This document shows positions 9,711 through 62,766 of a DNA stretch of 64,000 bases, piece by piece. The stretch lies in sequence record OR896825.1; one strand, given 5' to 3'. The position numbers and the translations under genes were made by a program. The DNA is from Escherichia phage Delraymugoa. The stretch's first letter is position 1; each line of letters starts with the position of its first letter. The notes below the pieces were generated by a model, which saw nothing but the letters and a program-made list of their open reading frames with translations, did no database searches and was not told the origin of the DNA.

Positions 9711-9744
9711 AATATATTCCTCACTGTTTTGTCTTGATGGGAGT

Positions 9745-9773
9745 ATCTTACTACTCCCTTAATCCGGTGTCAA
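9745..9773 (-). promoter_or_regulatory. sigma70-type early promoter with stem-loop (PeSL-like)
   Basis: Minus strand TTGACA-N17-TAAGAT; -10 lies in GGGAGTA..TACTCCC hairpin (9738-9757). Confidence 0.6.
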
Positions 9774-9784
9774 CTACTTTTAAA

Positions 9785-10084
9785 TTATTTTCGCCATTCA
9801 CCGGAAACAATAAAGTTTGTAAAGTGATCGTGGTCCATGATAACGTCATTAAGTACCATATGTGGATACACTTTAGTGATAATTTTACTAAGTACCATAT
9901 GCGGATATGCTTTAGTGTAATCACGTTTACGATCAGTCATCCAGCCAACGAAAGTTGGTGCAAAGTACGGTACACCGTCAGACGATGCCATATTAAACCC
10001 TTTATCAACCATAAATGCAGCCGCCCTAAGATTTTTAATTGAAGTAGTGCGACTAATTTCAAAAACTTTATCGGTAAAATTCAT
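9785..10084 (-). CDS. hypothetical protein (99 aa)
   Basis: Start moved to internal ATG (MNFTDKV) with GGGGG Shine-Dalgarno, which removes overlap with upstream gene. Confidence 0.45.
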   Translation of the reverse strand: MNFTDKVFEISRTTSIKNLRAAAFMVDKGFNMASSDGVPYFAPTFVGWMTDRKRDYTKAYPHMVLSKIITKVYPHMVLNDVIMDHDHFTNFIVSGEWRK

Positions 10085-10085
10085 T

Positions 10086-10295
10086 TTAAGCCCCCGCTCG
10101 TGCATTAATACGCATTTTCTGTATAGCCATGATCTGGTTTACTGCTTCTTCTTTACGTTCTTGCGTGATAATGTGACCAGATTCCGCAAACTCTCCAGCA
10201 ACTTCTTCTACGATCTCGCGAACTTGAGAACGTCCAAAGATGCGGTTTCCTTCGTAGCTCATAAACTCTGTTACTACTTGCTCGATAGATTTCAT
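10086..10295 (-). CDS. hypothetical protein (69 aa)
   Basis: ATG with GGAGAATCA leader directly downstream of promoter. Confidence 0.45.
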   Translation of the reverse strand: MKSIEQVVTEFMSYEGNRIFGRSQVREIVEEVAGEFAESGHIITQERKEEAVNQIMAIQKMRINARAGA

Positions 10296-10324
10296 GTGAT
10301 TCTCCTTTCGTTTGGTATGGGAGT

Positions 10325-10353
10325 ATGTTACTACTCCCTTATCTTTACGTCAA
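10325..10353 (-). promoter_or_regulatory. sigma70-type early promoter with stem-loop (PeSL-like)
   Basis: TTGACG-N17-TAACAT; GGGAGTA-GTAACA-TACTCCC hairpin over the -10. Confidence 0.6.
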
Positions 10354-10360
10354 CTAGTTT

Positions 10361-10603
10361 TTAGAAATTTTTCGCTTCTTCTTCGGTCATCATCACCGCG
10401 CATTCGTGCATAACTTTGAAAACCGGGTCAATCATATCGAATGCTTCGCTGGACAGTTTACGAGAAGCGATTTTGATTGCTTCAACGTCTTCTACTACAG
10501 GAACAAAAACAGTTTTCAGTTCGTCGAGCACGGCAGCTTCTTTTTCATTCAGGAAGATCCCAGCGTCGTACAGTGCAACTTCGATAACATTAACTTTAAC
10601 CAT
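10361..10603 (-). CDS. hypothetical protein (80 aa)
   Basis: Start set at internal ATG (MVKVNVIEV) with GGAGG Shine-Dalgarno downstream of promoter; track ORF began inside the upstream gene. Confidence 0.45.
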   Translation of the reverse strand: MVKVNVIEVALYDAGIFLNEKEAAVLDELKTVFVPVVEDVEAIKIASRKLSSEAFDMIDPVFKVMHECAVMMTEEEAKNF

Positions 10604-10637
10604 TTTTATTTCCTCCAGTTCGTTTCGGTATGGGAGT

Positions 10638-10666
10638 ATAATACTACCGATGACCTTTGGCGTCAA
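10638..10666 (-). promoter_or_regulatory. sigma70-type early promoter
   Basis: TTGACG-N17-TATTAT with A-rich upstream region. Confidence 0.55.
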
Positions 10667-10868
10667 CTGCTTTTTTATTATTTTCGTGAAAATTTTTCGT
10701 CGCCTCATGTGCTTTTCGCTGGGCTTCTTGTTGTGCTTGCTGGCGTGCTGCCTCTTGTGAAGCCATAACGGAAGCATTTGCAGCAGTTACAGCCGCTACC
10801 ATCGCTGCGGTATTAGCATTTACAGTACATGCACTAGCCAGCAAAGCAATTGCAATCATTTTCTTCAT
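10644..10868 (-). CDS. small secreted or lipoprotein-like protein (74 aa)
   Basis: Signal peptide MKKMIAIALLASAC; Ala/Gln-rich mature part; GGGGA Shine-Dalgarno; ATGA overlap with upstream gene. Confidence 0.5.
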   Translation of the reverse strand: MKKMIAIALLASACTVNANTAAMVAAVTAANASVMASQEAARQQAQQEAQRKAHEATKNFHENNKKAVDAKGHR

Positions 10869-11035
10869 AGTTTCCCCTTTAGGTTATCTTCGACCTTCAC
10901 CCATTCCGCGTATTCTTGCGCGGCTACTTTCGGATTTAGTCCGTCTTCGTACATTGCTTCAAGTAATTCTTCGTCGGTGGGCTTATACCCTAGATAAGCC
11001 TCCACCTGATTTTTCCAAATTTTATACCAGTTCAT
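10865..11035 (-). CDS. hypothetical protein (56 aa)
   Basis: Start moved to internal ATG (MNWYKIW) with GGTGA Shine-Dalgarno. Confidence 0.4.
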   Translation of the reverse strand: MNWYKIWKNQVEAYLGYKPTDEELLEAMYEDGLNPKVAAQEYAEWVKVEDNLKGKL

Positions 11036-11312: not shown

Positions 11313-11343
11313 CTTTGATTCTCCTTTTGTTTGGTATGTGTGT

Positions 11344-11372
11344 ATTATGCAATGATGGATTTGTGAAGTCAA
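11344..11372 (-). promoter_or_regulatory. sigma70-type early promoter
   Basis: TTGACT-N17-CATAAT followed by conserved leader ACACACATACCAAACAAAAGGAGAATCAAAG-ATG. Confidence 0.55.
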
Positions 11373-11380
11373 CAACTTTT

Positions 11381-11412
11381 TAAAATAAAAAAGCCGACCA
11401 CACGGATCGGCT
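11381..11412 (-). terminator. rho-independent terminator
   Basis: AGCCGA-TCCGTGTGG-TCGGCT then TTTTTTATTTT on minus strand; inverted copy of the 1026-1056 element. Confidence 0.65.
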
Positions 11413-11422
11413 TAATAATCAG

Positions 11423-15417: not shown

Positions 15418-15470
15418 TCCTCTATTAGTTGGGCGACTATCGCCGCCCGATTCACATCATTATACCAGAA

Positions 15471-15602: not shown

Positions 15603-15613
15603 AATATCACCTC

Positions 15614-17722: not shown

Positions 17723-17736
17723 AATATAATCCTCAC

Positions 17737-18387: not shown

Positions 18388-18417
18388 ATAAGTCAACCTT
18401 TTGTTTTCGATGGGGAC

Positions 18418-18446
18418 ATTATGATATATCCCCGATCCAGTGTCAA
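18418..18446 (-). promoter_or_regulatory. sigma70-type early promoter
   Basis: TTGACA-N17-CATAAT; GGGGA..TCCCC inverted repeat across the -10. Confidence 0.55.
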
Positions 18447-18453
18447 CAGATTT

Positions 18454-18753
18454 TTAATCTTTTTTCAGTGCATCCATTACTCGCTCTGCGATCAGTTCTC
18501 GTAAGCACTGATAACCATGATATTTGATGGCAATGTCACGCAGATCATTAACCAGTTCCCGTACTTCATGGTCTTTCAGATCGTCTCTGTATTTCGATTT
18601 AACCGTGTCTTTAGGTGGATTGCGGATAACCTGAAAACCTTGTTCTGCAATCACTGCGGCTTCGCGCTGGCGTTCATGTTGTACTGTATTTTTGATCAGG
18701 TCTGCTTCCATGAACTTTGCCATACTCATCATCATGTTATTCTTTTTGCTCAT
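18454..18753 (-). CDS. hypothetical protein (99 aa)
   Basis: Start moved to ATG (MSKKNNM) with GAGGA Shine-Dalgarno downstream of promoter. Confidence 0.45.
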   Translation of the reverse strand: MSKKNNMMMSMAKFMEADLIKNTVQHERQREAAVIAEQGFQVIRNPPKDTVKSKYRDDLKDHEVRELVNDLRDIAIKYHGYQCLRELIAERVMDALKKD

Positions 18754-18787
18754 TATTAAATCCTCATAAAAGAAAAGGGAGACTCCC

Positions 18788-18815
18788 ATTATAGAGAATC
18801 TCCCTTGTATGTCAA
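18788..18815 (-). promoter_or_regulatory. sigma70-type early promoter inside terminator-like stem-loop (PeSL-like)
   Basis: TTGACA-N16-TATAAT; -10 in loop of GGGAGA..TCTCCC stem followed by TTTTCTTTT; -35 abuts gp39 stop. Confidence 0.6.
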
Positions 18816-18818
18816 GTG

Positions 18819-20642
18819 TTATGATTGCATCCAAATTTTGCGCTGATCTGCATCTTCACTATAGAGCAAATCGAATAGCTCTTTATAGTTTTCCGGTAAC
18901 GTGATGATCTCCATGACAGGATCGTTGATCACGCGATGATAGTCTGATTCTGTGAGCGATGCTAAACCTTTGATATATCGAATGCTATAACCTTTGATAT
19001 TATCTCGGTCGTTCTCGAAATCTTCTAGGTCATAATACCATCGAACATCATCACCTTTCTTTGGTTCCGCAATGATAATAGGTGTTTTGATAAACCGGAT
19101 TCGTCCATCTTCGAACAATTCAGGCCAACGTGCAAAGAAAGAGATCAGACTAGGTTTAATAGACCCGATCCCGTCAGTATCAGCGTCGGTCATAATCGCA
19201 ATATTTTTGTATTGCATAACTTCCAATGCATCAACACCAAATTGCAAGCCAGTGATCGCCATGATGTTAAAAATTTCGGCGTTCTTAACGATCTTTGCCT
19301 CCGGTTGTTCCCACGTTGTAAGAGTTTTGCCTCGCAACGGGAAACCTCCATGTAAATCTTGATCGCGTACAGAGATCAGATAGTTGATCGCGGAATCACC
19401 TTCCGTCAAAAACAGGGTAGTTTCTGCGTCAGTTCCAATAAGGTTAGCTTTAACGTGTTTTGCCACCTTAGCCCGTTTCGCTGCCTTTGCTGCCTTAGTC
19501 GCTGCCGCTTTATCTGCTGCCTCTTTGCGTGCCAGGACTACAGCAATAATAGGCATGATAATGTTTTCTTTCTTAGCAATGGCTTTAGCCAGCTTTTTAA
19601 AATCAAGATCAATATGACGCTTGATATCACCAGTTGGATTAGTCAATCGTTCTTTTGTCTGTGAATCAAAACGAAGGTTAGGCAATTCACGAACAATAAG
19701 AATACAGGTCAATCCAGACTTAACCGCAGCTTTAGTAACATCAACCTTATATTCTTTCTTGATTCGTTTTACAATCTCTTCACAAAGATCATCTGTCACA
19801 TAATCAACGTGTGTTCCCCCGTTTTTGGTAAACAGACCATTAGCAAAGGATACTGATTTAAAACCTTCTCCCTCGACCGCAGGAACTAGGGCAAGTGAAA
19901 AGTTTTTATCTTCAATGACAAACGGATCATCATTGTATAGTTTAGCATAATCCTTGAACTTACTAACAATACGTTTACCATTAAACTTAAACGTGATCTT
20001 AGGAAAGATTACGCTCAATGATTGCAGACGATCATGAACAATATCTAAAACAGAGTTGTCCATCATATAACCTTCGAAGTGGTCGAAGTCTGGACAAAAT
20101 GTAACCTTCGTTCCCTTCAATTTTGATGGTTTTGATGACCATGTGATATTTTCAGCACCGTTTGTGCACTGTACGGTCATTTCTGTTTCGCCGTCACAGG
20201 TCACACCAGTAAACCAATCGCTAAAGAAATTTGACAACGACGACCCCACACCGTTCATCCCTTGCGTTAATCGATTGGTATCATCAAAGTTAGACCCTGC
20301 TTTTGTTCGTGTCCATGCGGCTACAGGTTGCGGAATCTGCGTGCCCTCTGGGGTAGTAACCATATGTTGAGGAATACCGCGACCATTGTCTGTTACCGTA
20401 ACAATATTGTTTTGGATATCGACGCTAATCACATTGGCAAATTCAAAATTAGTGCGGATCGCCTCGTCTACAGAGTTGTCGATAATCTCATCAATGATTT
20501 TAACCAGCCCAGGAACATATGAAATTTTTGTCCATTTACCGAACAGGAAACGTTGATGTTCTTCGTAAGTTGTTGATCCTATATACATTCCTGCACGCTT
20601 AAGGACATGTTCACGATCAGATAAAATGCGGAACTCACTCAT
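18819..20642 (-). CDS. 39: DNA topoisomerase II large subunit gp39 (GyrB-like ATPase, fused gp39+gp60 form)
   Basis: GHKL/GyrB N-terminal motifs; 607 aa is about T4 gp39+gp60 combined; T4 synteny. Confidence 0.9.
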   Translation of the reverse strand: MSEFRILSDREHVLKRAGMYIGSTTYEEHQRFLFGKWTKISYVPGLVKIIDEIIDNSVDEAIRTNFEFANVISVDIQNNIVTVTDNGRGIPQHMVTTPEGTQIPQPVAAWTRTKAGSNFDDTNRLTQGMNGVGSSLSNFFSDWFTGVTCDGETEMTVQCTNGAENITWSSKPSKLKGTKVTFCPDFDHFEGYMMDNSVLDIVHDRLQSLSVIFPKITFKFNGKRIVSKFKDYAKLYNDDPFVIEDKNFSLALVPAVEGEGFKSVSFANGLFTKNGGTHVDYVTDDLCEEIVKRIKKEYKVDVTKAAVKSGLTCILIVRELPNLRFDSQTKERLTNPTGDIKRHIDLDFKKLAKAIAKKENIIMPIIAVVLARKEAADKAAATKAAKAAKRAKVAKHVKANLIGTDAETTLFLTEGDSAINYLISVRDQDLHGGFPLRGKTLTTWEQPEAKIVKNAEIFNIMAITGLQFGVDALEVMQYKNIAIMTDADTDGIGSIKPSLISFFARWPELFEDGRIRFIKTPIIIAEPKKGDDVRWYYDLEDFENDRDNIKGYSIRYIKGLASLTESDYHRVINDPVMEIITLPENYKELFDLLYSEDADQRKIWMQS

Positions 20643-20704
20643 TATTAAACCTCTTCATAACATAACCATAACTTACTGCAACCGCCACAAAGACGGCTGC
20701 AACA

Positions 20705-20732
20705 ATCATATTAAAAATTGAGTGATTGTCAA
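20705..20732 (-). promoter_or_regulatory. candidate early promoter upstream of gp39
   Basis: TTGACA-N16-TATGAT on minus strand. Confidence 0.35.
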
Positions 20733-20741
20733 GTATATGAC

Positions 20742-20915
20742 TCATGACACGCGCACATTTTTATCATAGTACCCGCCATTAATCCCGCGCGGGGCAGTTA
20801 ATCCCTGTTTGCATTCTTTACCACATTCAGGGCATTCTGCCTTTTCACGTTCGGAAATTTTGCGGATTTTCTGAAATTGACCGTGTTCTTCACAAGAATA
20901 ATCATATAATGGCAT
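20742..20915 (-). CDS. small zinc-ribbon protein (57 aa)
   Basis: Start at ATG (MPLYDYSCEEHG) with GGGGA Shine-Dalgarno; CxxH..CxxC pattern; begins 1 nt after dexA stop. Confidence 0.45.
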   Translation of the reverse strand: MPLYDYSCEEHGQFQKIRKISEREKAECPECGKECKQGLTAPRGINGGYYDKNVRVS

Positions 20916-21829: not shown

Positions 21830-21830
21830 A

Positions 21831-24647: not shown

Positions 24648-24676
24648 AATTGATTCTCCTTAGTTGGTATGTGTGT

Positions 24677-24705
24677 ATTATTGTCTATCTGGTTTGTGCT
24701 GTCAA
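24677..24705 (-). promoter_or_regulatory. sigma70-type early promoter
   Basis: TTGACA-N17-AATAAT followed by leader ACACACATACCAACTAAGGAGAATCAATT-ATG. Confidence 0.55.
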
Positions 24706-24708
24706 CAC

Positions 24709-25212
24709 TTAAATTAAAGAAAATTTGTAAATCTCTATCAGATCGCCATTACACGCGTAAACTTCCTCGATCTCATCAAGGATCATGGTCGTCCCTGTCT
24801 TGTATATGCACTCGCGCTCATCTGCCAACATAGCATACAAAGACAGTCGAGTAGTCGGATTGTCATACTCTTTAGACACCACTCGGTCAATAGCATGTTC
24901 GTAATAATTCATGCAAGGCTTGGTAGGTTTTATTGCAATAATCTTTCCTGTTGCATAAACATCGGTCGCAAAGTCCTCTGCTGTTGATTGCAGTGGCGTA
25001 AAGCTCATAGGACGCTCTACAACGAAAGAATCGCCTACAATTAAGGTATCCAGCTTACGACCTTCTCTTTTGCTCACACCGCGATACAAGGCTTCATGAT
25101 GCACTAACCGCTCAGTCTTTTCGATCAATCCATTAAGGATCGACATATCGATATTTTCTTTAGAGTTCATCACTTCATCAATGATGTTAAGTTCTTCTGG
25201 TGTAAATTGCAT
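24709..25212 (-). CDS. putative ADP-ribosyltransferase (Mod-like)
   Basis: R-S-E-like motif set (LYRG, SFT, ERE); size and position after dda as T4 modA/modB. Confidence 0.45.
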   Translation of the reverse strand: MQFTPEELNIIDEVMNSKENIDMSILNGLIEKTERLVHHEALYRGVSKREGRKLDTLIVGDSFVVERPMSFTPLQSTAEDFATDVYATGKIIAIKPTKPCMNYYEHAIDRVVSKEYDNPTTRLSLYAMLADERECIYKTGTTMILDEIEEVYACNGDLIEIYKFSLI

Positions 25213-25245
25213 AATAAAAAAGCCTCCAATCTTTCGACGGGAGGC
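25211..25245 (-). promoter_or_regulatory. hairpin plus U-run that sequesters the Shine-Dalgarno of the Mod-like gene (terminator or translational control)
   Basis: GCCUCC-N12-GGAGGC stem; the 3' arm is the Shine-Dalgarno sequence; followed by UUUUUUAUU-AUG. Confidence 0.5.
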
Positions 25246-25274
25246 ATAATAAAACCATTATAGAGTAGTGTCAA
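25246..25274 (-). promoter_or_regulatory. sigma70-type early promoter
   Basis: TTGACA-N17-TATTAT immediately upstream of the hairpin; predicted start site falls in the hairpin loop. Confidence 0.5.
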
Positions 25275-25282
25275 CTAATTTT

Positions 25283-25801
25283 TTAGTAGCCGCGTTCTTG
25301 ACGGGCGAAGTTTTCAGCATTTTTCAGATAGTACAGAATAAAGAGTTCTTGAGCGTCAATACCCAGCGGGATCATCTTTGACAGAATGAAGTGGATCGCG
25401 TCCACAAATTCAAATTTCACTTCAAGCTGATCTTCCGGTGACAGTTCAGAGAATTTACGCGCTCGCGCTTCTCCGTGGTTCTTTTTCCACATTTTCCAGA
25501 TTGCACTTGCATCTTTACCATTGGACATTCCACCCAGCGATGTGTAAAGCTCTCGTGTTTCGTCTGCGATAGCGTCATCCATCCGTTGCATCCAATCCAG
25601 CATTTCACCGCAAGTCTCTAGCTTAGTTGGATTTGGGACCCAATCAAATTTTTCGGATAATGCAACCTGCAAACCAGTTTGCATTTCGAGCATCACCTGA
25701 AACGGATCTTTACCTTCTGCAATAGCGTGATGATATGCGGCGATAGCCGCGTTAATATCTTTTTCGTTAACCAGACCAGCACAAGAATTAAATTCTGACA
25801 T
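25283..25801 (-). CDS. 56: dCTP pyrophosphatase gp56 (MazG-like)
   Basis: Shared T4 gp56 blocks DPFQVML(E/D)MQ, KLET.G(E/D), SPEDQLE.KFE, YYLKN.ENFARQ.RGY; start moved to ATG (MSEFNSC) with GAGGTGA Shine-Dalgarno. Confidence 0.85.
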   Translation of the reverse strand: MSEFNSCAGLVNEKDINAAIAAYHHAIAEGKDPFQVMLEMQTGLQVALSEKFDWVPNPTKLETCGEMLDWMQRMDDAIADETRELYTSLGGMSNGKDASAIWKMWKKNHGEARARKFSELSPEDQLEVKFEFVDAIHFILSKMIPLGIDAQELFILYYLKNAENFARQERGY

Positions 25802-31335: not shown

Positions 31336-31563
31336 CTATTCAGTTAATCCGTAATACTTTAATTGCTTCATTGTTATTCGATCTTTGTAGTGCTCTTGAA
31401 TTAACTTTTTCATCGCATCAACATCGATCGTCACAAATACTTCGTTGCTGTGATTTCCGTGAACTTTCTTGAAATGCTCTATGCCTTCCTCACGTTCACG
31501 TTTAATCTTTTCAATGTCTCTCATCGTATATTTCTCACGTTGGCGGGTATCGTCACCCAACAC
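31336..31563 (-). CDS. hypothetical protein (75 aa)
   Basis: Only ORF between uvsX and gene 43. Confidence 0.4.
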   Translation of the reverse strand: MLGDDTRQREKYTMRDIEKIKREREEGIEHFKKVHGNHSNEVFVTIDVDAMKKLIQEHYKDRITMKQLKYYGLTE

Positions 31564-31585
31564 CCGCCATTATACACACTTTATC

Positions 31586-34264: not shown

Positions 34265-34296
34265 AATATAAACTCCTTCACTTACGAAAGACACTC

Positions 34297-34325
34297 ATTA
34301 TAGGGGAATCGACTTAGTTTGTCAA
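34297..34325 (-). promoter_or_regulatory. sigma70-type promoter for gene 43
   Basis: TTGACA-N17-TATAAT between regA stop and gene 43; flanked by ATAGGGG..CCCCTAT inverted repeat. Confidence 0.55.
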
Positions 34326-34346
34326 TACCCCTATCCCATCAGTATC

Positions 34347-36263: not shown

Positions 36264-36296
36264 ATAATCACCTCTCACAAATTACATCATTAAAAC

Positions 36297-36316
36297 GGGG
36301 AGTATTTACACTCCCC
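36297..36316 (-). promoter_or_regulatory. intergenic stem-loop between gp45 and gp44
   Basis: GGGGAGU-N6-ACUCCCC; same stem family as the promoter-associated hairpins but with no -35 element. Confidence 0.4.
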
Positions 36317-36328
36317 ACAAACATTATA

Positions 36329-41088: not shown

Positions 41089-41113
41089 AACAACCTCCAA
41101 TCAATTTTTAGAG

Positions 41114-41142
41114 AGTATAACGGGGATTTCTCCCCGCGTCAA
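41114..41142 (-). promoter_or_regulatory. sigma70-type early promoter with palindromic spacer
   Basis: TTGACG-N17-TATACT; spacer contains CGGGGA-TTTC-TCCCCG. Confidence 0.55.
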
Positions 41143-42168
41143 CTAACTTTTTGCGCTATTTACCTCGGCTAAAAGTTCATCAGAAATACGCTTGACCGCC
41201 GCAAGTTCTTCCGGTTCTAGGTTTTGTTCTTCCAGATATTCATAGACCATCTGAATAGTGCTTTTAACTTCAATAACACCTGTTTCCTGTGATGCGCTAC
41301 TCTCCAGCTTATGGACCACTTTTAGCTTGTGTACAACGGCCTCTAACGCGCTTTCTAACTTAGTTAACCCATTATCAGCGACCGTTGCAATAAGACGCAC
41401 ACTAAGCCCCTTAAAGCGTTCTACATCGATTTTATCATCTGACGGGTAAGTGATACGCACATGATAAGTTTTGTCATTCTGGATAAACTCCTTTTTGTGT
41501 GTATCGGTATCGAATACCCAAAACCCACGCGGATCGTTTTCGTCACCCGCCGTTAGTGTGTATGGTGTACCTATATACGTTACGTTACCGCCATCGCTGA
41601 TAGTATGAAAGTGACCAGAAAACACTTCACGGTATTTCTTGAGGAAGTCCGCGCTATAACCTTCGGATTTTAGTCCTTTATAGAAATAGTAGCCAGACAA
41701 TTCCCAATGGCCTACACAATATTCGCTGAATGAGTTTTGAATAAACTCTAAAATCTCTGATTTATTGTCATCACAAAACCACGGGAACAGATCAAATGAT
41801 ACACCATCAAAGGTAACTGTTTCCGGTTTATCGATAACCTTAATGCAATCATACTGGCTTAACACTTCACGCGGTGCGTTAGGCTGGATCTTGTTTCGTT
41901 TAAACATATCATGATTCCCGACCGTGGTATAACAAGTAATACTAGCCTCTTCCAGTAACGGGATGATCTTAGTACGGTTAAATTTCATGGTTTCATGGGT
42001 AATTGCTTTTCGGCAATCAAACCAATCCCCTGTTTGAATCCATGTCTTAATATTATGCTCTTTGGAGTATTCAACCGCTTTCTTGATGGTGTCAAGAATA
42101 TACTCATGCACCCACGGATCATCGCCACCGATACCAGTATGCAGATCACCTAAAAGCAAAATTTTCAT
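41143..42168 (-). CDS. 47: recombination endonuclease subunit gp47 (Mre11/SbcD-like phosphoesterase)
   Basis: MKILLLGDLHTG, GNHD, GHxH phosphoesterase motifs; 341 aa; synteny. Confidence 0.9.
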   Translation of the reverse strand: MKILLLGDLHTGIGGDDPWVHEYILDTIKKAVEYSKEHNIKTWIQTGDWFDCRKAITHETMKFNRTKIIPLLEEASITCYTTVGNHDMFKRNKIQPNAPREVLSQYDCIKVIDKPETVTFDGVSFDLFPWFCDDNKSEILEFIQNSFSEYCVGHWELSGYYFYKGLKSEGYSADFLKKYREVFSGHFHTISDGGNVTYIGTPYTLTAGDENDPRGFWVFDTDTHKKEFIQNDKTYHVRITYPSDDKIDVERFKGLSVRLIATVADNGLTKLESALEAVVHKLKVVHKLESSASQETGVIEVKSTIQMVYEYLEEQNLEPEELAAVKRISDELLAEVNSAKS

Positions 42169-48499: not shown

Positions 48500-48541
48500 A
48501 TTTGATTCTCCTGTAAAGTTGTATCTCGTCTTGATGAATAT

Positions 48542-48570
48542 AGTATAGGGGATCTCGCGATCCCCGTCAA
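48542..48570 (-). promoter_or_regulatory. sigma70-type early promoter with GATC-containing palindromic spacer
   Basis: TTGACG-N17-TATACT; spacer GGGGATC-TCGC-GATCCCC carries two GATC sites. Confidence 0.55.
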
Positions 48571-48574
48571 GCAT

Positions 48575-49102
48575 TTATTTTAAATTTTTTCGAATGTATT
48601 CAGACCATTCCTTCCCTGTCATTTCGGACCCGTTCTGGAAACTGAAATATTCATACGGCATCGAGTCAAGATAAAACAGGATCATACATCGCGCCATATA
48701 ATACCAATCACGATTAAAGTAAACTACGTTATCACCAGTACCATCAACCCCTTTATCATAACCATCGCGGGTACGGGCGACCCATTGAATAGTATCATTT
48801 TTCTCGCGGATCGTAACAGGTTCCCAATATCCAGCACATCCAGCATGACCACACGAACAAGTCAGGAAATATTGACCTTTTGCTTTGTTGTCATCCCATT
48901 CACGATGGATTGGTTCGATCTCGTGAAACAGTGCTAAGCAATCATGATTATGCAACACTGGCTTACCATCAATCAATGCATGGAATGTATACAAACGACC
49001 AGTAGACAAATAGCTATCCTCACGCTCAACCAGTTCAATAGCAATCTTTTTAGCTCGTTCTTTGTGTCGTTGTGCTTTACGCTTACGGTTTAATGATTTC
49101 AT
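48575..49102 (-). CDS. hypothetical Cys/His-rich protein (175 aa)
   Basis: Start moved to ATG (MKSLNRKRK) with GAGGTGA Shine-Dalgarno; CSCGHAGCAGY segment. Confidence 0.45.
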   Translation of the reverse strand: MKSLNRKRKAQRHKERAKKIAIELVEREDSYLSTGRLYTFHALIDGKPVLHNHDCLALFHEIEPIHREWDDNKAKGQYFLTCSCGHAGCAGYWEPVTIREKNDTIQWVARTRDGYDKGVDGTGDNVVYFNRDWYYMARCMILFYLDSMPYEYFSFQNGSEMTGKEWSEYIRKNLK

Positions 49103-49665: not shown

Positions 49666-49694
49666 GTTGTCCTCTCGTTGTTTTCGATGTGAGC

Positions 49695-49722
49695 ATTATA
49701 CATTAGCTAATCATGTTGTCAA
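49695..49722 (-). promoter_or_regulatory. sigma70-type early promoter
   Basis: TTGACA-N16-TATAAT immediately downstream of the nrdD terminator. Confidence 0.55.
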
Positions 49723-49726
49723 CACC

Positions 49727-49760
49727 CCAAAACGAAAAAGCCGACCCTTTCGGATCGGCT
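49727..49760 (-). terminator. rho-independent terminator after nrdD
   Basis: AGCCGA-UCCGAAAGGG-UCGGCU followed by UUUUUCGUUUU. Confidence 0.65.
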
Positions 49761-49765
49761 GAAAT

Positions 49766-52167: not shown

Positions 52168-52197
52168 AATATAATCCTCTCGTTGTTAAGTGGGAGT

Positions 52198-52225
52198 ATT
52201 ATAGCATACTCCCTTCGCATGTCAA
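52198..52225 (-). promoter_or_regulatory. sigma70-type early promoter with stem-loop (PeSL-like)
   Basis: TTGACA-N16-TATAAT; -10 inside GGGAGTA..TACTCCC hairpin; -35 overlaps upstream stop codon. Confidence 0.6.
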
Positions 52226-53400
52226 GCACTAACTTTTTTCTTTACTGCTTTCACCTTCTGGCGAATTGCTCGAATCTCTTCGATCTCTTTTTCAGTATCT
52301 TTAACAATTTCTTTGCGATTCTGAATATCTTTATCGAGATTATCATCAAGTTTAGGCAGCATGTCAATCAAGAACTTTTTAAGGTCTTTCAGGTTGCGAA
52401 TAACAGTACCTTCACCCATTACCGCCACGCCTACACCATCCGGCAGATCACCAAACAGTTTAACCAGTTCAGACAGATGATCATGATCTTCTAGTGCTTC
52501 TTCCGGTTCAGATGGCAGTTCAACAAAGTAATAACGTTCATCATTGCTGATCAGGTGATACCAGCAAAGCCCAAAAGATTTAGGAGTATATTCTACACCA
52601 CCAACTTCAACTGCATCAACACTTCCGAAAGAATCTACTTTAGTTACCTTAAATCCATGTTCCAGCGTTTTAATAATTTCAATAACATGACTGGATACGG
52701 TTTCAGTATTAAACCAATGAGGCAAATTATGTGGATTTGGCTTGTATCGTTCGCCTACTTTAAATCTCTGACCACGCTCTTGCATACGGACATATTCAAC
52801 TCGCGTGATTTCCGCGAAGTATTCAAATTCGCTACCGTCAAACAAGCAATTCCATTGATCACAAAAACGGTCCGCCTTGACGGTTTCACCTTTCGCGGTG
52901 ATCATGGTAGCTGATCCGTGCAATTCTTCTTCAACTAAAAAGCCATATTCGACAAAATCAACAAGTTTCATGGCTTCTTTGTGCTCTGGGTCATGCTCTC
53001 CCCAGAATCGCTTAAATTCTTGCAAACCTTCTGGGGTAAACGAATAACATTTACCTTTTTCAAAGTAAGTCGGCATTGCATCCTCTTTCTTGTTCATCGC
53101 TTCGTATGCCTCTTTTGAGATACGTTTAAAGTATTTGCGCTCATTGTGCATAATCATAGTAGACCAATAATAAACGATATCCTCAGCGGAATAAACTACA
53201 TCTCCAGCTTCAATAGTAATAACATGACCGTGGTCATCTTTTTCTAATACTTTAAAGCCCTTTTCTACGATTTCAGCAACCCGAATATGACCACGGCGCG
53301 AAGCATCGGTCAGAATAATTGAATAGCGAGAAAAGTCTAGAAACTCATCTTTACCGCCTTCACGGAATGCATAGTAATGACCTTCAAAGAATTTAGCCAT
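52222..53400 (-). CDS. paralog family B member with three internal repeats (392 aa)
   Basis: Repeats containing GFKV(L/T)..D..G.V and (N/D)ER(K/Y)YF motifs; Lys/Glu-rich coiled-coil tail. Confidence 0.55.
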   Translation of the reverse strand: MAKFFEGHYYAFREGGKDEFLDFSRYSIILTDASRRGHIRVAEIVEKGFKVLEKDDHGHVITIEAGDVVYSAEDIVYYWSTMIMHNERKYFKRISKEAYEAMNKKEDAMPTYFEKGKCYSFTPEGLQEFKRFWGEHDPEHKEAMKLVDFVEYGFLVEEELHGSATMITAKGETVKADRFCDQWNCLFDGSEFEYFAEITRVEYVRMQERGQRFKVGERYKPNPHNLPHWFNTETVSSHVIEIIKTLEHGFKVTKVDSFGSVDAVEVGGVEYTPKSFGLCWYHLISNDERYYFVELPSEPEEALEDHDHLSELVKLFGDLPDGVGVAVMGEGTVIRNLKDLKKFLIDMLPKLDDNLDKDIQNRKEIVKDTEKEIEEIRAIRQKVKAVKKKVSA

Positions 53401-53431
53401 AATATAATCCTCTCGTTGTTTAGACGGGAGT

Positions 53432-53460
53432 ATCTTACTACTCCCGTTTCATCATGTCAA
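53432..53460 (-). promoter_or_regulatory. sigma70-type early promoter with stem-loop (PeSL-like)
   Basis: TTGACA-N17-TAAGAT; CGGGAGTA-N6-TACTCCCG hairpin. Confidence 0.6.
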
Positions 53461-54023
53461 GCGTTAAATGACTTTTGGATCTCTTTCAGTTCAGCTACTT
53501 TATCGGCGCTGAATTTAGCGTAGGCATCATGTCGAATAATTTCACTTTCAAGAAAGGTTTCCAGCCGAGATCTATTTTCAATAAGGAACTCTTTCAGGTC
53601 TTCCGCGTTCTTGATAAAGATTTTATTGTCGGTAATGTCATCTTCAATCGCAAAGGAGATAGAGCGAACTTTACCAAACAAGTTAATCAGATCTTCCAGA
53701 GATTCTTCTTTCTTAACTGGTTTCATTTCTTCAAACTGCTTTTTAGTGATGCGTTTAAAGTATTTGCGCTCGTTTGCAGCAATCAGAACAGATGCACCTT
53801 CATACCCATGAGTTTCTACCAGATACACACGCCCCATCGCATCAACAGTGAGAACTTTAAAGCCGTTACAAAGCACGTCATACAAGAACTTATTATGTTG
53901 CGGACATCGCTTGATAAATTCTGCGGCTGTTTCTGCATTACGGAAAGTGTAATAACGACCTCGTTCAAAAACAGCATCATTTGAAGACTTAGCCGGATAC
54001 AATTTATACGTTTTCTGTACCAT
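53457..54023 (-). CDS. paralog family B member (188 aa)
   Basis: GFKVLTVDAMGRV...NERKYFKRITKKQFEEM; start moved to ATG with GAGGA Shine-Dalgarno. Confidence 0.5.
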   Translation of the reverse strand: MVQKTYKLYPAKSSNDAVFERGRYYTFRNAETAAEFIKRCPQHNKFLYDVLCNGFKVLTVDAMGRVYLVETHGYEGASVLIAANERKYFKRITKKQFEEMKPVKKEESLEDLINLFGKVRSISFAIEDDITDNKIFIKNAEDLKEFLIENRSRLETFLESEIIRHDAYAKFSADKVAELKEIQKSFNA

Positions 54024-54037
54024 AATATAATCCTCTA

Positions 54038-54310: not shown

Positions 54311-54341
54311 TGTTGATTCTCCTTCTTGATTAGATGGGAGT

Positions 54342-54370
54342 ATTTTACTACTCCCATTTCTTATTGTCAA
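54342..54370 (-). promoter_or_regulatory. sigma70-type early promoter with stem-loop (PeSL-like)
   Basis: TTGACA-N17-TAAAAT; GGGAGTA-N6-TACTCCC hairpin. Confidence 0.6.
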
Positions 54371-54373
54371 CTA

Positions 54374-54847
54374 CTATCTTAATCTTTGTATGAATTGTTT
54401 CTTATACTTCTTCGTGATCTCTTCTCTTGTATCCGCGTCACAGTAATCGAAACCTTCTGCGTCCATAATAGCAACCATCTCCGCTCGTGTCAAGCGTGAA
54501 AATCGTTTTACTTTATCAACAGCATATTGAGGATGTAAATGATTGTTGGTGTAGTCTCCTTTGATGTAATTAACATAGTTTGTAGCCCAAACAACGAAAT
54601 CAGCACCTAAAGCACCAACACCAAACCGTTTAAAGTCTCCGGTCAACGATCCTTCTAGGCGGTTGCAACACGAATGAAGCAATCCCCTTACGCGGCCTTG
54701 CCCTTTCCCATCTAGATCATGATCATGGTCAAGATGGTTTTTGCTCATATCCTCAAAAAGTGGCAATTGACAAAGGGGGCAAATGCCCCCCTGTTTTTCG
54801 AATAGTTCTTGTTTGTACTCTTTAGCACTCTTAGCAGTCAGTAACAT
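54374..54847 (-). CDS. 49: endonuclease VII gp49 (Holliday junction resolvase)
   Basis: NHLDHDH...G..RGLL..CN..EG and C-terminal blocks as T4 endo VII; 157 aa from ATG with GGAGGGTGA Shine-Dalgarno. Confidence 0.9.
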   Translation of the reverse strand: MLLTAKSAKEYKQELFEKQGGICPLCQLPLFEDMSKNHLDHDHDLDGKGQGRVRGLLHSCCNRLEGSLTGDFKRFGVGALGADFVVWATNYVNYIKGDYTNNHLHPQYAVDKVKRFSRLTRAEMVAIMDAEGFDYCDADTREEITKKYKKQFIQRLR

Positions 54848-57532: not shown

Positions 57533-57566
57533 AATATAATCCTCACATCGTTCATTTGATGCGGTC

Positions 57567-57595
57567 ATTATATGATAACCGCATTTTCATGTCAA
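57567..57595 (-). promoter_or_regulatory. sigma70-type early promoter
   Basis: TTGACA-N17-TATAAT; GCGGT..ACCGC inverted repeat across the -10. Confidence 0.55.
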
Positions 57596-57601
57596 CAGTT
57601 T

Positions 57602-57910
57602 TTAAAAATCTTCTTCCGGTTTATATCGACCGTCATCGACTGGTTTTGGACTGAATCCTTTATGCGTGCGCGGCTTCGCTTCCGGTTTACCAGCAATCAT
57701 CAAACCAAAACATTTCAGCCCCTTATAACACATAACAATATCAACCACGGTCCACGTTATAGGCCAGACGATTGCAGCAATACAAAATGCTCCTGTATCG
57801 ACCTCTTTGGTGTCCTTGTCGAATCTGGCATACAAGCAGAATACTAGATACGAGATCATTGCACCAGTAATCCAGATATAAAGCACATTAACAATATCTT
57901 GTGTTGTCAC
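57602..57910 (-). CDS. membrane protein (about 102 aa)
   Basis: GTG start 5 nt after GGAGG; two transmembrane helices. Confidence 0.45.
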   Translation of the reverse strand: MTTQDIVNVLYIWITGAMISYLVFCLYARFDKDTKEVDTGAFCIAAIVWPITWTVVDIVMCYKGLKCFGLMIAGKPEAKPRTHKGFSPKPVDDGRYKPEEDF

Positions 57911-58199: not shown

Positions 58200-58241
58200 T
58201 TTGATTCTCCTTAAGAAAGTGTGTTTCGTTTTGATGTGTGT

Positions 58242-58270
58242 AGTATAGGGGATCACCGATCCCCTGTCAA
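58242..58270 (-). promoter_or_regulatory. sigma70-type early promoter with GATC-containing palindromic spacer
   Basis: TTGACA-N17-TATACT; spacer GGGGATC-ACC-GATCCCC. Confidence 0.55.
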
Positions 58271-58279
58271 CAACTTTTT

Positions 58280-58543
58280 TTATGATTTTAGTGAATTAAC
58301 TACTACATCAAAATGATGTACAGAGTACACCTTATTAAACACATACTCATCGTGTTTAGGAATAGCCCCTAATCGCTCTATTTCGCTCGCTAACACGATA
58401 AACTGTTTATCCGGTGCATTTACCTTATATGCTTCAACAACGCACGGAAAACGCGTTTTAGCGAGTTCGGGATAGTTTTCTGACTCCATCAGGACAATGA
58501 ATACTCTGTTACATTGATTGTAGAATCCTGTTTTTGATTTCAT
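58280..58543 (-). CDS. hypothetical protein (about 87 aa; start uncertain)
   Basis: ORF overlapping the upstream gene; start placed at internal ATG. Confidence 0.35.
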   Translation of the reverse strand: MKSKTGFYNQCNRVFIVLMESENYPELAKTRFPCVVEAYKVNAPDKQFIVLASEIERLGAIPKHDEYVFNKVYSVHHFDVVVNSLKS

Positions 58544-59780: not shown

Positions 59781-59790
59781 TCTATATTCC

Positions 59791-59988: not shown

Positions 59989-59998
59989 AATATAATCC

Positions 59999-60289: not shown

Positions 60290-60318
60290 CTTTGATTCTC
60301 CTTAGTTGGTATGCGTGC

Positions 60319-60346
60319 ATTATAGCATTGTGATTATCTTTGTCAA
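60319..60346 (-). promoter_or_regulatory. sigma70-type early promoter
   Basis: TTGACA-N16-TATAAT immediately after terminator. Confidence 0.55.
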
Positions 60347-60350
60347 CACA

Positions 60351-60383
60351 CAAAAACAAAAAAGGCTACCCCGAAGGATAGCC
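60351..60383 (-). terminator. rho-independent terminator after gp38-like gene
   Basis: GGCUAUCC-UUCG-GGGUAGCC with UUCG tetraloop, followed by UUUUUUGUUUUUG. Confidence 0.65.
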
Positions 60384-60390
60384 CATAAAA

Positions 60391-61176: not shown

Positions 61177-61190
61177 AAAATTTCCTCACA

Positions 61191-61212
61191 AGAAAAGCCC
61201 CAATTAAGGGGC
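61191..61212 (-). promoter_or_regulatory. hairpin (weak terminator or attenuator) upstream of gp38-like gene
   Basis: GCCCC-UUAAUU-GGGGC followed by UUUUCUUG. Confidence 0.35.
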
Positions 61213-61230
61213 ATTGATTGATAATATTAC

Positions 61231-61452
61231 TTAGATGACCTCTGCTTCACCATTCAGGAAGAAAGACCATGTTTTGTTAGGATAGCGAAGCGCCCATGAT
61301 TCAGCGGTTTTAACACCAGCTTCGAACAATTGACGGCTGGTTACTTTAGCCATACCATCTTCGATGGCAACGTTTTCAATAATCATCGGGTACTTAGCGC
61401 CACGCATGAAACCGAAGCCAGCGGAAGATTTGATAATTTTAACCGTTGCCAT
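61231..61452 (-). CDS. hypothetical protein (73 aa) co-transcribed with gp38-like gene
   Basis: ATG with GGAGAATCAAAA leader downstream of promoter. Confidence 0.45.
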   Translation of the reverse strand: MATVKIIKSSAGFGFMRGAKYPMIIENVAIEDGMAKVTSRQLFEAGVKTAESWALRYPNKTWSFFLNGEAEVI

Positions 61453-61493
61453 TTTTGATTCTCCTAGAAAGTGTATCTCGTTTCGATGTGTGT

Positions 61494-61522
61494 ATTATGC
61501 AATAACACCGGATCGCTGTCAA
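61494..61522 (-). promoter_or_regulatory. sigma70-type early promoter
   Basis: TTGACA-N17-CATAAT with conserved leader. Confidence 0.55.
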
Positions 61523-61541
61523 CACTTTCTAAGAAAAATTT

Positions 61542-61826
61542 TTAAACTAATCGAATATAGCCCAGAATTTCAGCACCTTTAGCCAGTCCTAAAACTTCCC
61601 ATTCAAGGTCTCCATAGTCATAATTTGCAACCATCAACTGACCATTTTTCATGCAGCAATCATGAGAGAAAATTTGCCCCGCATAAACTACGATAGTGAT
61701 AAACTTTCCTGATTCTGGCGGTGTGGAAGACAAAGCGACCATATGACCATTCAGCTTAGTCACCAGTGATGGAACAATAAAATTCGGGCTTACCTTAATA
61801 CCGTTAAATTCGTTTGTGTCTTTCAT
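61542..61826 (-). CDS. hypothetical protein (94 aa)
   Basis: ORF in array. Confidence 0.45.
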   Translation of the reverse strand: MKDTNEFNGIKVSPNFIVPSLVTKLNGHMVALSSTPPESGKFITIVVYAGQIFSHDCCMKNGQLMVANYDYGDLEWEVLGLAKGAEILGYIRLV

Positions 61827-62173
61827 GCCAGACCTCGCAAAACACTAATAGCATAATCATGCTGGTTATTCATAATATCAATTGCATTGTGATAACGAGC
61901 TAAACCATCAAGGATAAATTCTTGTTTATCTTGTTTCAGTTTGGTATCACGCGCAGCCATAAGAGCATCAAGAACAGGTCCAAAGTGATTATCTAATTCA
62001 TCTTCGGTTGCAATGTTTCCTATTGCCTCGTCGATCCGTGATTCTAATGCTTGCTTTTCGTTGATCACTTGCTGGGTATATTCCAACACATCAAGAATAT
62101 CGCGGGTAACATCGCCATGATAAGGTATTCCCGCATGAAGATGATCAATTAGTCGTTGAATGTCAATGTTCAT
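61823..62173 (-). CDS. hypothetical protein (116 aa)
   Basis: ORF in array. Confidence 0.45.
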   Translation of the reverse strand: MNIDIQRLIDHLHAGIPYHGDVTRDILDVLEYTQQVINEKQALESRIDEAIGNIATEDELDNHFGPVLDALMAARDTKLKQDKQEFILDGLARYHNAIDIMNNQHDYAISVLRGLA

Positions 62174-62508
62174 TTGTAACCCTCCTCTGAAAGCACATCC
62201 CAGATCGTTGAGTCAAGGTGCATTAAATTCCACATAATAGAGTCATAACTACCGAAGCCAGAAGTAAAAATTACATCACACTGGCGATAGGTCTTATGAA
62301 AATCGGTGGCTGTCTCTGCATCAATAGGCATATCGTCACCGGAAAGCACCAGACATTTAAGAATCATAACTCTGTTAGCCGTTGGCGCTTGCTTAGTCTT
62401 TTCAGCATATTTTTCGATGATCCGTTTTGCCTTTTCTTCTTTGATACGTCCAGACCAAATCCGGTTTCGGTATTGATTCATAATAATTTCAATCACATCA
62501 TTTTGCAT
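62170..62508 (-). CDS. hypothetical protein (112 aa)
   Basis: ORF in array. Confidence 0.45.
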   Translation of the reverse strand: MQNDVIEIIMNQYRNRIWSGRIKEEKAKRIIEKYAEKTKQAPTANRVMILKCLVLSGDDMPIDAETATDFHKTYRQCDVIFTSGFGSYDSIMWNLMHLDSTIWDVLSEEGYK

Positions 62509-62707
62509 TCTTCACGGTCTCCATAATTGTTTTGTAAGCCAGTTTAAGATGATCACCGAAAAACTTTGCGGTGTTACCCTTCGGATCGCGGAGCATGGTT
62601 TCTACGATCTCATCGGCAGTAACAATTTCTCCTTTCTTTGCTGCATGTTCTACCATATACTTCAAAGTTTCTTCGGAAGCAAGTGCTGCCGCTACTGGAT
62701 TAATCAT
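62498..62707 (-). CDS. hypothetical protein (69 aa)
   Basis: ATG with GGAGAATCAAAA leader downstream of promoter. Confidence 0.4.
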   Translation of the reverse strand: MINPVAAALASEETLKYMVEHAAKKGEIVTADEIVETMLRDPKGNTAKFFGDHLKLAYKTIMETVKNAK

Positions 62708-62737
62708 TTTTGATTCTCCTTTGTTGTCGATGTGTGC

Positions 62738-62766
62738 ATTATGCTATACCCTATTCCGGTTGTCAA
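62738..62766 (-). promoter_or_regulatory. sigma70-type early promoter
   Basis: TTGACA-N17-CATAAT. Confidence 0.55.

Follow-up and report, generated by a model that had tools for sequence, protein, structure and literature searches.

The 64,000-nucleotide stretch of the genome of Escherichia phage Delraymugoa analysed here (sequence record OR896825.1; hereafter "the window") carries on its minus strand 23 intergenic cassettes in which a promoter, in most cases a stem-loop, and a translation start are combined, and we hold with high confidence that these cassettes are promoter-early stem-loops (PeSLs), composite regulatory units found between the genes of RB49-type phages. Their identity and their part in regulation have already been published (Arbiol et al. 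2010; Comeau et al. 2014), so that the finding of these elements in the window by a first-pass annotation, which had noted a resemblance to the PeSL cassettes of T4-type phages, is a correct rediscovery. The present work adds to the description of PeSLs the occurrence of crossovers in their leaders as well as in their AT-rich part, the interchangeability of their cores and leaders, the exclusion of most hairpins from the cassettes' own transcripts as deduced from coordinates, the slow evolution of the stems, and a quantified, minority share in the insertions and deletions (indels) that distinguish related genomes.

The identification rests on orthology to RB49 and phi1 sequences, the phages in which PeSLs were defined (Arbiol et al. 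2010, Genome Biol Evol 2:140, PMC2839356). Each of the 23 cassettes has an orthologue in RB49 or phi1 with at least 90% identity, and wherever the region was fetched RB49 and/or phi1 match at 70-79 of 78-79 positions per cassette, which answers the positional comparison with related genomes that the first-pass annotation had proposed and bears out the resemblance that it noted. The GenBank record of GEC-3S independently marks the same sites as promoter, -35, -10 or terminator. The published units consist of near-perfect sigma-70 promoters that are AT-rich upstream, a Gn…Cn stem-loop in five alternative positions, and a Shine-Dalgarno (SD) sequence and start codon at the 3' end; each genome has about 51-52 of them, for the most part upstream of ORFans in hyperplastic regions, with gene 43 bordered by PeSLs and an association with nrdD (PMC2839356). 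The cassettes of the window show no essential difference from these elements: the genus is the same, the orthologous elements are 90-100% identical, and TTGACA-N17-TATAAT, the A-rich tract holding the upstream stop codon, the Gn-loop-Cn in five positions, the 3' SD and ATG, the flanking of gene 43 and nrdD, and the association with small ORFans are all shared, and some indels likewise have their junctions in the elements. Comparison of three sections of the window with GenBank phages by megablast returned full-length matches of 95-99% identity to Krischvirus genomes, among them RB49, phi1, JSE, GEC-3S, kaaroe and FL37, and by this measure the source of the window is a Krischvirus, an RB49-like coliphage of the T4 type. 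Identity to phages of the RB49 group is 97-99%.

The promoters of the cassettes can be recognized without reference to the relatives. All 20 of the minus-strand sites listed in the first-pass annotation, which had spoken of more than 20 early promoters, were confirmed by eye to have the form TTGAC(A/G/T)-N16/17-(T/C/A)AnnnT followed by an SD sequence and, at a distance of 26-45 nt, an ATG; the list had omitted cassettes 20705, 31569 and 36323, which bring the intergenic count to 23, as well as about 13 consensus-like promoters in the 3' ends of upstream genes. Every cassette scores 9-12 out of 12 against the sigma-70 consensus and is oriented with its downstream gene. TTGACA is the -35 hexamer of 17 cassettes, TTGACG that of 4 and TTGACT that of 2; spacers of 17 nt are found in 17 cassettes and spacers of 16 nt in 6. 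The -10 and the ATG of the 23 cassettes are separated by 26-63 nt, and in 20 of them by 30-45 nt. All genes beyond about 6.7 kb are encoded on the minus strand, which in this part of the window has 53 consensus matches of at least 10/12 versus 5 for the plus strand (p=3e-11); likewise, TTGAC-N18-TAnnnT has 25 matches versus 3.4 expected, all but one of them on the minus strand. The intergenic enrichment that had been suggested as a check is pronounced, with 7.03 promoter matches per kb in the 3.1 kb of intergenic DNA versus 0.57 per kb in coding sequence (odds ratio 12, p=1e-14) and 0.07-0.3 per kb on the other strand. A TTG-type promoter-like match of at least 9/12 is present in 29 of the 37 minus-strand intergenic gaps of at least 25 nt, and a blind search for direct repeats returned the cassettes as its top families (D1, D3-D8, D10 and D13). 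Nineteen of the 23 cassettes lie within 9.7-25.3 kb or 41-62.8 kb, among small hypothetical open reading frames (ORFs), and the others, in the replication core, border gene 43 and gene 44 in agreement with the published account, gene 43 (31586-34264, DNA_pol_B) being bracketed by cassettes 34297 upstream and 31569 downstream.

Consensus, orientation and position, taken together with published work on RB49 and phi1, support the reading of the cassettes as early promoters. In RB49 the consensus of the early promoters is in agreement with mapped 5' ends (Nolan 2006, PMC1524935, citing Desplats 2002), and, among further PeSLs of RB49 and phi1, PeSL206/205 gave high lacZ activity, about 13,000 Miller units (PMC2839356).

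Consensus-grade sigma-70 promoters are also found on the gene strand within coding sequence, at 15845-15873 and 17803-17831 (both 12/12), the latter 81 nt before rIIA, and further at 8725, 18299, 22231, 30256, 37127, 38146, 45125, 45384, 47944, 54938, 57947 and 60068. Thirteen of 31 such matches lie within 125 nt upstream of the next start codon, versus 24% expected (p=0.02), and early transcription may indeed begin at promoters of this kind, placed within the 3' ends of the preceding ORFs.

A cassette is about 80-110 bp long and has a regular anatomy. Its 5' part is an A-rich tract that usually holds the upstream stop codon (TAAAAA.(T/A)G); the upstream consensus is t..a.aaa…g-TTGACA, with stop codons visible in the TAAAAA tracts, and the enrichment is modest, the 25 nt upstream of the promoter being 67% A+T versus 59.6% for the window. 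Four cassettes that are preceded by terminators have T-tracts in place of this A-rich tract. The start region is C-rich at -3 to -1 and continues into a conserved CAT; the A of this triplet, 7 nt past the -10, is the likely +1. The leader, of about 23 or about 36 nt, belongs to one of a few recurring types (ACACACATACCAAAC…, CACATCGAAAAC… or …AACAACGAGAGG…), and the cassette ends in a strong ribosome-binding motif, AAGGAGAATCAAA or GAGGATTATATT, followed by ATG. The earlier description of about ten near-identical leaders is a fair one when applied to the core GGAGAATCA-N0-5-ATG, which occurs 10 times, always on the minus strand and always at a start codon; the exact 16-mer leader end AAGGAGAATCAAAATG occurs only twice. 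Motifs common to several cassettes are 65-90% identical over 40-70 nt. Exact identity is shorter: between paralogous cassettes it extends over 23 nt at most, with a median of 8 nt for the longest stretch in common, and nine paralogous pairs share an exact match of at least 15 nt. Rfam and tRNA scans gave no matches, which places the leaders and hairpins outside the curated RNA families.

A second translation-initiation motif, GAGGATTATATTATG, is present in eight exact copies (8627-8641, 17720-17734, 30196-30210, 52165-52179, 53398-53412, 54021-54035, 57530-57544 and 59986-60000), all on the minus strand and at start codons; since several of these stand at genes without a promoter in front, the motif is a ribosome-binding-site (RBS) module that is independent of the promoter cassettes.

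Hairpins, defined by a stem of at least 7 bp with at least 4 G-C pairs, are present in 18 of the 23 cassettes, versus 2.06±1.39 in random genomic segments and 0.39 in shuffled cassettes, and their positions are those of the five published PeSL classes: over the -10 in 8 cassettes, in the spacer in 3, upstream with a T-tract in 4, downstream of the -10 in 3 and, imperfectly, in 1 more, and over the -35 in 1 imperfect case, with no hairpin or a degenerate one in the remaining 3. The claim that at least seven sites place the -10 inside a GGGAGTA-N6-8-TACTCCC hairpin was too generous, the exact hairpin being present at 5 (9739, 10319, 52192, 53426 and 54336, versus 0 expected); the number becomes 8 only if other stem sequences are allowed, which adds cassettes 18418, 18788 and 57567. 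The remark that several sites stand immediately after a terminator is accurate for four cassettes, 11344, 49695, 60319 and 62738, which have a hairpin and T-tract directly upstream. RNA fold z-scores range from -1.6 to -4.1 in 11 hairpin units and are +0.2 and +0.3 in two units without a hairpin. At 18788 a stem of 12-13 bp followed by a T-tract has the shape of a true terminator for gene 39 and holds the -10 in its loop. In 15 of the 18 hairpin units (those with the hairpin over the -10, in the spacer or upstream) no part of the hairpin extends past the predicted +1, so that, judging from the coordinates, the cassette's own transcript would lack the hairpin, which could fold only in read-through RNA. 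A single covariance alignment of all hairpins over the -10 was considered and dropped, as their centres shift by 1-2 nt relative to the -10.

The question of whether the inverted repeats act as RNA or as DNA can be addressed through their evolution. Among orthologous cassettes compared in 17 fetched loci, distinct substitutions were found at 17 of 334 stem sites versus 161 of 1440 flanking sites (p=5e-4) and 18 of 90 loop sites; the stems evolve more slowly than the flanks, and the loops faster. Pairing is kept on the sense strand in 9 of the 17 stem changes, 4 of them switches from U-A to U·G, and on the antisense strand in 6, 1 of them through G·U, and different cassettes keep pairing with different stem sequences. 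This pattern favours a structure of the sense strand, either RNA or displaced single-stranded DNA, over a site for a sequence-specific protein. An alternative that we consider improbable in both of its forms taken together is that the repeats work as DNA, either as operators through which a dimeric phage protein shuts the early promoters, or as cruciforms that modulate promoter melting or are cut by endonuclease VII so as to start recombination. It would account for the repeats that overlap the -10 or spacer in 11 cassettes, where a bound protein or a cruciform would block or alter RNA polymerase, and for the lack of a terminator U-tract in most of them; Arbiol et al. speculated that GGGG…CCCC is the target of a DNA-binding protein, and endonuclease VII (gp49) is encoded in the window. 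However, the stem sequences vary (GGGAGTA, GGGGATAT, GCGGTTAT, GGGGATC, CGGGGAG, GGGAGATTCTC) and the register of the hairpin relative to the -10 shifts by 1-2 nt, and since it is pairing that is kept and not sequence, the stems are a poor fit to one sequence-specific protein; several stems, moreover, have T·G, or variation between T·G and T-A, on the sense strand, which corresponds to A·C mismatches on the other strand, and four units have classic upstream terminators and four a hairpin downstream of the -10. A sequence-specific operator was rejected as the main explanation, given that the stem sequences differ between cassettes. It is a shade less probable still that the stem-loops, besides attenuating as RNA, serve as DNA inverted repeats centred on the -10 or the spacer, extruded or bound by a phage factor, which shut the promoters off late or are cut by a structure-specific nuclease such as endonuclease VII, so that the cassettes become active recombination hot spots and not just passive stretches of short homology.

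The PeSL reading suggests the following mode of action. Unmodified host RNA polymerase would start early transcription at each cassette, as the consensus and the published 5' mapping and lacZ results indicate. In read-through RNA arriving from the upstream gene the hairpin would form and terminate or attenuate transcription or stabilize the 3' end of the RNA; termination by one PeSL stem-loop has been demonstrated, the stem-loop of PeSL211/210 attenuating as well as rrnB T1 (PMC2839356). If the hairpin acts on upstream read-through RNA in this way, each cassette would insulate one small early gene module from the next, and it is plausible that the cassettes delimit independently regulated modules. 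The short homologies between cassettes would provide, as a side effect, occasional crossover sites at which the flanked ORFs are inserted, deleted or swapped.

Several results weigh against this account. On the regulatory side, a T-tract follows the hairpin in only 7-8 of the 18 hairpin units, hairpins of the GGGAGTA and GGGGATC types do not qualify as canonical intrinsic terminators, and the G·U signal of the sense strand amounts to only 4 events versus 1. The 5' ends of RB49 transcripts were reportedly mapped by primer extension by Desplats in 2002 (cited in Nolan 2006); beyond this 2002 work the searchable literature yielded no Krischvirus transcription data, and none for this phage. On the side of exchange, the homologous regions of 14 relatives were compared, 7 for 5.8-27.2 kb and 7 for 39.7-64 kb, and 18 structural differences were mapped, of which 4 lie in cassette sequence, 6 are insertions of homing endonucleases, 3 involve repeats of paralogues or RBSs and 5 are of other kinds. 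Jumps in the gene-by-gene identity profile are not larger at cassette junctions (Mann-Whitney p=0.36 and 0.44), and changes in gene presence or absence are not in excess there (4/20 versus 11/66 at other junctions, p=0.74).

The four events in cassette sequence are as follows. In the first (E1 in the table) three alleles occupy the interval between 9781-9789 and 10093, all joined in the TAAAAA..TAG-TTGACA tract: an "empty" allele in phiS, LF73P4, AV108 and PHB13, a 99-amino acid ORF in the window and kaaroe, and a second PeSL of the 58242 type with a 51-amino acid ORF in RB49 and SSG23. The second is the absence of 10374-10878 from AV108, with its junction in the A-rich tract of cassette 10325. 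In the third, LF73P4 and SSG23 have a 68-amino acid ORF between two PeSLs at the locus where the window has a single hybrid PeSL, the crossover lying in the common leader CCCATACCAAACAAAAGGAGA. The fourth is the absence of 60313-61231 of the window, comprising gp38 and the core of cassette 60319, from KMB43 and one IMG/VR contig (L002); in KMB43, the only one of the two in which the junction was inspected, a different PeSL core, CGGGGAGAAATCCCCG, takes its place and is joined in the leader. The three tandem-paralogue or 27-nt RBS-repeat indels are at 21883-22004, 58932-59104 and 59776-59802, and the homing-endonuclease insertion sites at 18815-18847, 20573-20655, 25795-25807, 42165-42169, 50758 and 55167-55169. 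Indels at gene boundaries fall on cassette-bearing junctions in 7 of 13 cases versus 22% expected (p=0.012), 2 of these 7 being endonucleases; junctions within cassette sequence itself (4/18) are not enriched over the share of gene junctions that bear a cassette (p=0.31).

It is possible, though we judge it distinctly less probable than not, that the cassettes are ordinary promoters, terminators and RBSs, each maintained independently, which resemble one another through functional constraint only and have no special role in shuffling. The lack of excess mosaicism at cassette junctions, the small number of indel junctions in cassette sequence and the shortness of exact matches between paralogous cassettes are what this explanation would predict, and other repeats, such as a 27-nt RBS repeat in ECD7 and the 5' ends of paralogues, mediate indels equally. 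It does not readily explain why distant loci share sequence that has no obvious promoter or RBS role, including a 20-nt identical hairpin (9745 and 53432), identical leaders of 22-23 nt, and ACACACATACCAA between the -10 and the SD, nor why cassettes should be mosaics whose cores and leaders can be exchanged, of which KMB43 gives an example, nor why PeSL-ORF-PeSL alleles alternate with single hybrid PeSLs; PeSL mini-circles detected by PCR have also been reported (PMC2839356). Of the suggestion that the cassettes may drive shuffling of accessory genes, the part that stands is that four indels have their junctions in cassettes, and the part that does not is any leading role, most indels having arisen otherwise and mosaicism not being raised. 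Because the exact homology is short, junctions are not enriched and mosaicism is not in excess, exchange through PeSLs is best described as real but occasional, and in these alignments it behaves like ordinary short-homology recombination.

Outside the RB49 group, elements close to those of the window are the PeSLs and PmSLs of T4/PST and KVP40/nt-1, to which Comeau et al. (2014, PMC4122927) extended the concept. These too are promoter-terminator composites of hyperplastic regions with a proposed role in modular exchange, but they have T4-type (TTTACW…TAYWAT) or KVP40-type promoters and A/T-richer stems, whereas the cassettes of the window follow the RB49-type sigma-70 consensus and have G/C stems. 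Earlier work on T4 and RB49 early promoters described the same dependence on host sigma-70, the A-rich upstream element, the C-rich -3 to -1 region, the G at -33 in RB49, and positions 5' to early genes and novel ORFs, but it treated promoters alone, without overlapping stem-loops or conserved leaders (PMC1524935). Lambdoid morons and integron cassettes likewise place small accessory genes with their own promoter and terminator between resident genes; however, morons lack conserved flanking linker repeats, and integron cassettes need an integrase and attC sites, while no dedicated recombinase is known or seen here. The early promoters of phage N4 are DNA hairpins that are read by the virion RNA polymerase and have no -35 or -10 elements. 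The likeness to the window, an inverted repeat at an early promoter, is superficial, as the window has plain sigma-70 promoters and a hairpin whose position varies.

Few concrete candidates are available for the conserved "linker" sequences of Botstein's modular theory of phage evolution, and PeSLs are among them. To our knowledge, RB49-type phages do not have the middle-mode transcription of T4, and PeSLs explain how the long early regions of this type are punctuated into separately expressed small units. For the window the practical value lies in annotation, namely of 23 early promoters, the associated terminators and the start codons likely to be correct, which are collected in the table; the caution that the 14 relatives impose is that PeSL exchange is a minority route of gene-content change, behind homing endonucleases and other short repeats.

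Table. PeSL cassettes of the window (all on the minus strand; cassettes are named by position, promoters given as -35, spacer length in nt and -10, z is the RNA fold z-score, and D numbers are direct-repeat families)
Cassette	Extent	Promoter	Hairpin or terminator	z	Leader	Start	Remarks
9745	9711..9798	TTGACA (9773-9768), TAAGAT	-10 in loop of GGGAGTA/TACTCCC (9739-9758)	-2.05	end GAGGAATATATT-ATG	9710	AT-rich TAAAAGTAG; indel junction E1 at 9781-9789
10325	10296..10378	TTGACG-17-TAACAT	-10 in GGGAGTA/TACTCCC (10319-10338)	-2.79	CCCATACCAAACGAAAGGAGAATCAC-ATG	10295	AV108 deletion junction 10374 in AT-rich part
10638	10604..10690	TTGACG-17-TATTAT	degenerate half-hairpin (…GGTAGTATTATACTCCC), stem not intact		end GGAGGAAATAAAA-ATG	10603	D1
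11344	11313..11413	TTGACT-17-CATAAT	upstream terminator AAGCCGATCCGTGTGGTCGGCTT+T6 (11391-11413)		ACACACATACCAAACAAAAGGAGAATCAAAG-ATG	11312	hybrid of two PeSLs flanking extra ORF in LF73P4, SSG23
18418	18388..18470	TTGACA-17-CATAAT	-10 in GGGGATAT/ATGTCCCC	-3.24		18387	
18788	18735..18840	TTGACA-16-TATAAT	-10 in loop of 12-13 bp stem (18775-18806), then T-tract	-4.07	after GAGGATTTAATA	~18735 (likely)	gene 39 terminator overlapping promoter
20705	20643..20745	TTGACA-16-TATGAT	downstream of -10 (20673-20705), gene 39 leader			20642	
24677	24648..24730	TTGACA-17-AATAAT	none	+0.20	ACACACATACCAACTAAGGAGAATCAATT-ATG	24647	srd
25246	25213..25300	TTGACA-17-TATTAT	imperfect hairpin + T-tract downstream of -10 (GCCTCCC…GGAGGCTTTTTT)			25212	ADP-ribosylase
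31569	31525..31620	TTGACA-16-TATAAT	12-bp hairpin downstream of -10				overlaps gene 43 end
34297	34265..34346	TTGACA-17-TATAAT (12/12)	GGGG…CCCC arms span -35 and spacer			34264	directly upstream of gene 43 (DNA polymerase)
36323	36264..36375	TTGACT-17-TATAAT	GTGGGGAGTGTAAATACTCCCCGT+TTTT downstream of -10				in gene 45 end, upstream of gene 44
41114	41089..41165	TTGACG-17-TATACT	spacer hairpin GCGGGGAGAAATCCCCGT	-1.57		41088	annotated promoter in GEC-3S
48542	48500..48600	TTGACG-17-TATACT	spacer hairpin GGGGATCGCGAGATCCCC	-2.43	long, end CAGGAGAATCAAAT-ATG	48499	D4
49695	49666..49765	TTGACA-16-TATAAT	terminator AGCCGATCCGAAAGGGTCGGCT+T5 after nrdD, then promoter		end AACGAGAGGACAAC-ATG	49665	D6
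52198	52168..52250	TTGACA-16-TATAAT	-10 in GGGAGTAT/ATACTCCC (52192-52213)	-4.13	AACAACGAGAGGATTATATT-ATG	52167	
53432	53401..53485	TTGACA-17-TAAGAT	-10 in ACGGGAGTA/TACTCCCGT (53424-53447)	-2.88	same as 52198	53400	frd.2/goF; 20-/23-nt exact matches to 9745/52198
54342	54311..54395	TTGACA-17-TAAAAT	-10 in ATGGGAGTA/TACTCCCAT	-3.52	end GAAGGAGAATCAACA-ATG	54310	
57567	57533..57620	TTGACA-17-TATAAT	-10 in ATGCGGTTAT/ATGACCGCAT	-2.48	end GTGAGGATTATATT-ATG	57532	
58242	58200..58295	TTGACA-17-TATACT	spacer hairpin AGGGGATCGGTGATCCCCT	-2.84	long, end TAAGGAGAATCAAA-ATG	58199	D4; paralogous copy at 9.8-kb locus in RB49, SSG23
60319	60290..60390	TTGACA-16-TATAAT	terminator GGGCTATCCTTCGGGGTAGCCT+T6 after gp38, then promoter		GCACGCATACCAACTAAGGAGAATCAAAG-ATG	60289	D6, D7
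61494	61453..61541	TTGACA-17-CATAAT	none	+0.32	long, end CTAGGAGAATCAAAA-ATG	61452	D4
62738	62708..62805	TTGACA-17-CATAAT	terminator AAAAGCCATCCGAAAGGGTGGCTTTT+TCGTTTTT, then promoter		GCACACATCGACAACAAAGGAGAATCAAAA-ATG	62707	D6

Two annotations carried by the relatives look wrong in the light of the table: the ATG at 18789, their annotated start, is part of the -10 (TATAATG) of cassette 18788, and a 36-amino acid ORF at 20635-20745 runs across promoter 20705 and its hairpin. In the 205-nt gap between rIIA and rIIB (15409-15613), which holds a 43-amino acid ORF annotated in relatives, there is a weaker, TG-extended promoter, TTGTCG-17-TATAAT, followed by the hairpin GGGCGGCGATAGTCGCCC just 5' of rIIB.

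The six homing-endonuclease sites are empty in the window, and the relatives carry there free-standing HNH or HNH-AP2 genes, in site order LF73P4; phiS and PHB13; phiS and AV108; RB49 and JK32; JSE (inside nrdD); and GEC-3S and KMB43. The gene ends next to these insertions are recoded. Tandem runs of paralogous small genes lie at 21826-22061, 46480-47848, 53093-53774 and 58847-59104, comprising repeat D12 (88% identity), family D2 (the 5' ends of four genes), the frd.2/goF pair and the ORF073/074 family, and relatives gain or lose one copy through recombination between the paralogues. An IMG/VR scan with the frd.2/goF protein returned three loci; GenBank phage records were used for the comparison.

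The gene map was restricted by strand and checked against the annotation of relatives. On the minus strand it includes the early and replication genes typical of T4-type phages (rIIA/B, topoisomerase, dda, srd, primase, uvsX, gene 43, clamp loader, 46/47, gp55, nrdD/G/H, endo VII, dam, rI and tk), among which small ORFans are scattered in numbers, while positions 1-6655 hold plus-strand late genes for tail fibre and holin. The T4 late-promoter motif TATAAATA is found only at 1175 (plus strand) and 63757 (minus strand), with no occurrence within 6.7-63.7 kb. The 968-amino acid tail-fibre protein (2777-5683, plus strand) combines a Gp34_trimer-like domain with a Peptidase_S74 intramolecular-chaperone domain at its C-terminus, and despite this a gp38 tail-fibre adhesin is encoded elsewhere, at 60391-61176 (Pfam GP38, E=1e-70), in the early region and on the early strand, with a hairpin on one side and cassette 60319 on the other.

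The 328-nt non-coding gap at 62708-63035 includes a possible gene remnant at 62815-63017. By coordinates calculated from the alignments, the gap appears to keep both ends of a 715-amino acid gene; Shigella phages SSG23 and JK32 have this gene intact, with an insert of about 2 kb between window positions 62853 and 62925; phi1 has at the 62815-63017 locus a different filler of 154 nt with ORF84.1. The stretch 62815-63017 looks like the remnant of a deletion.

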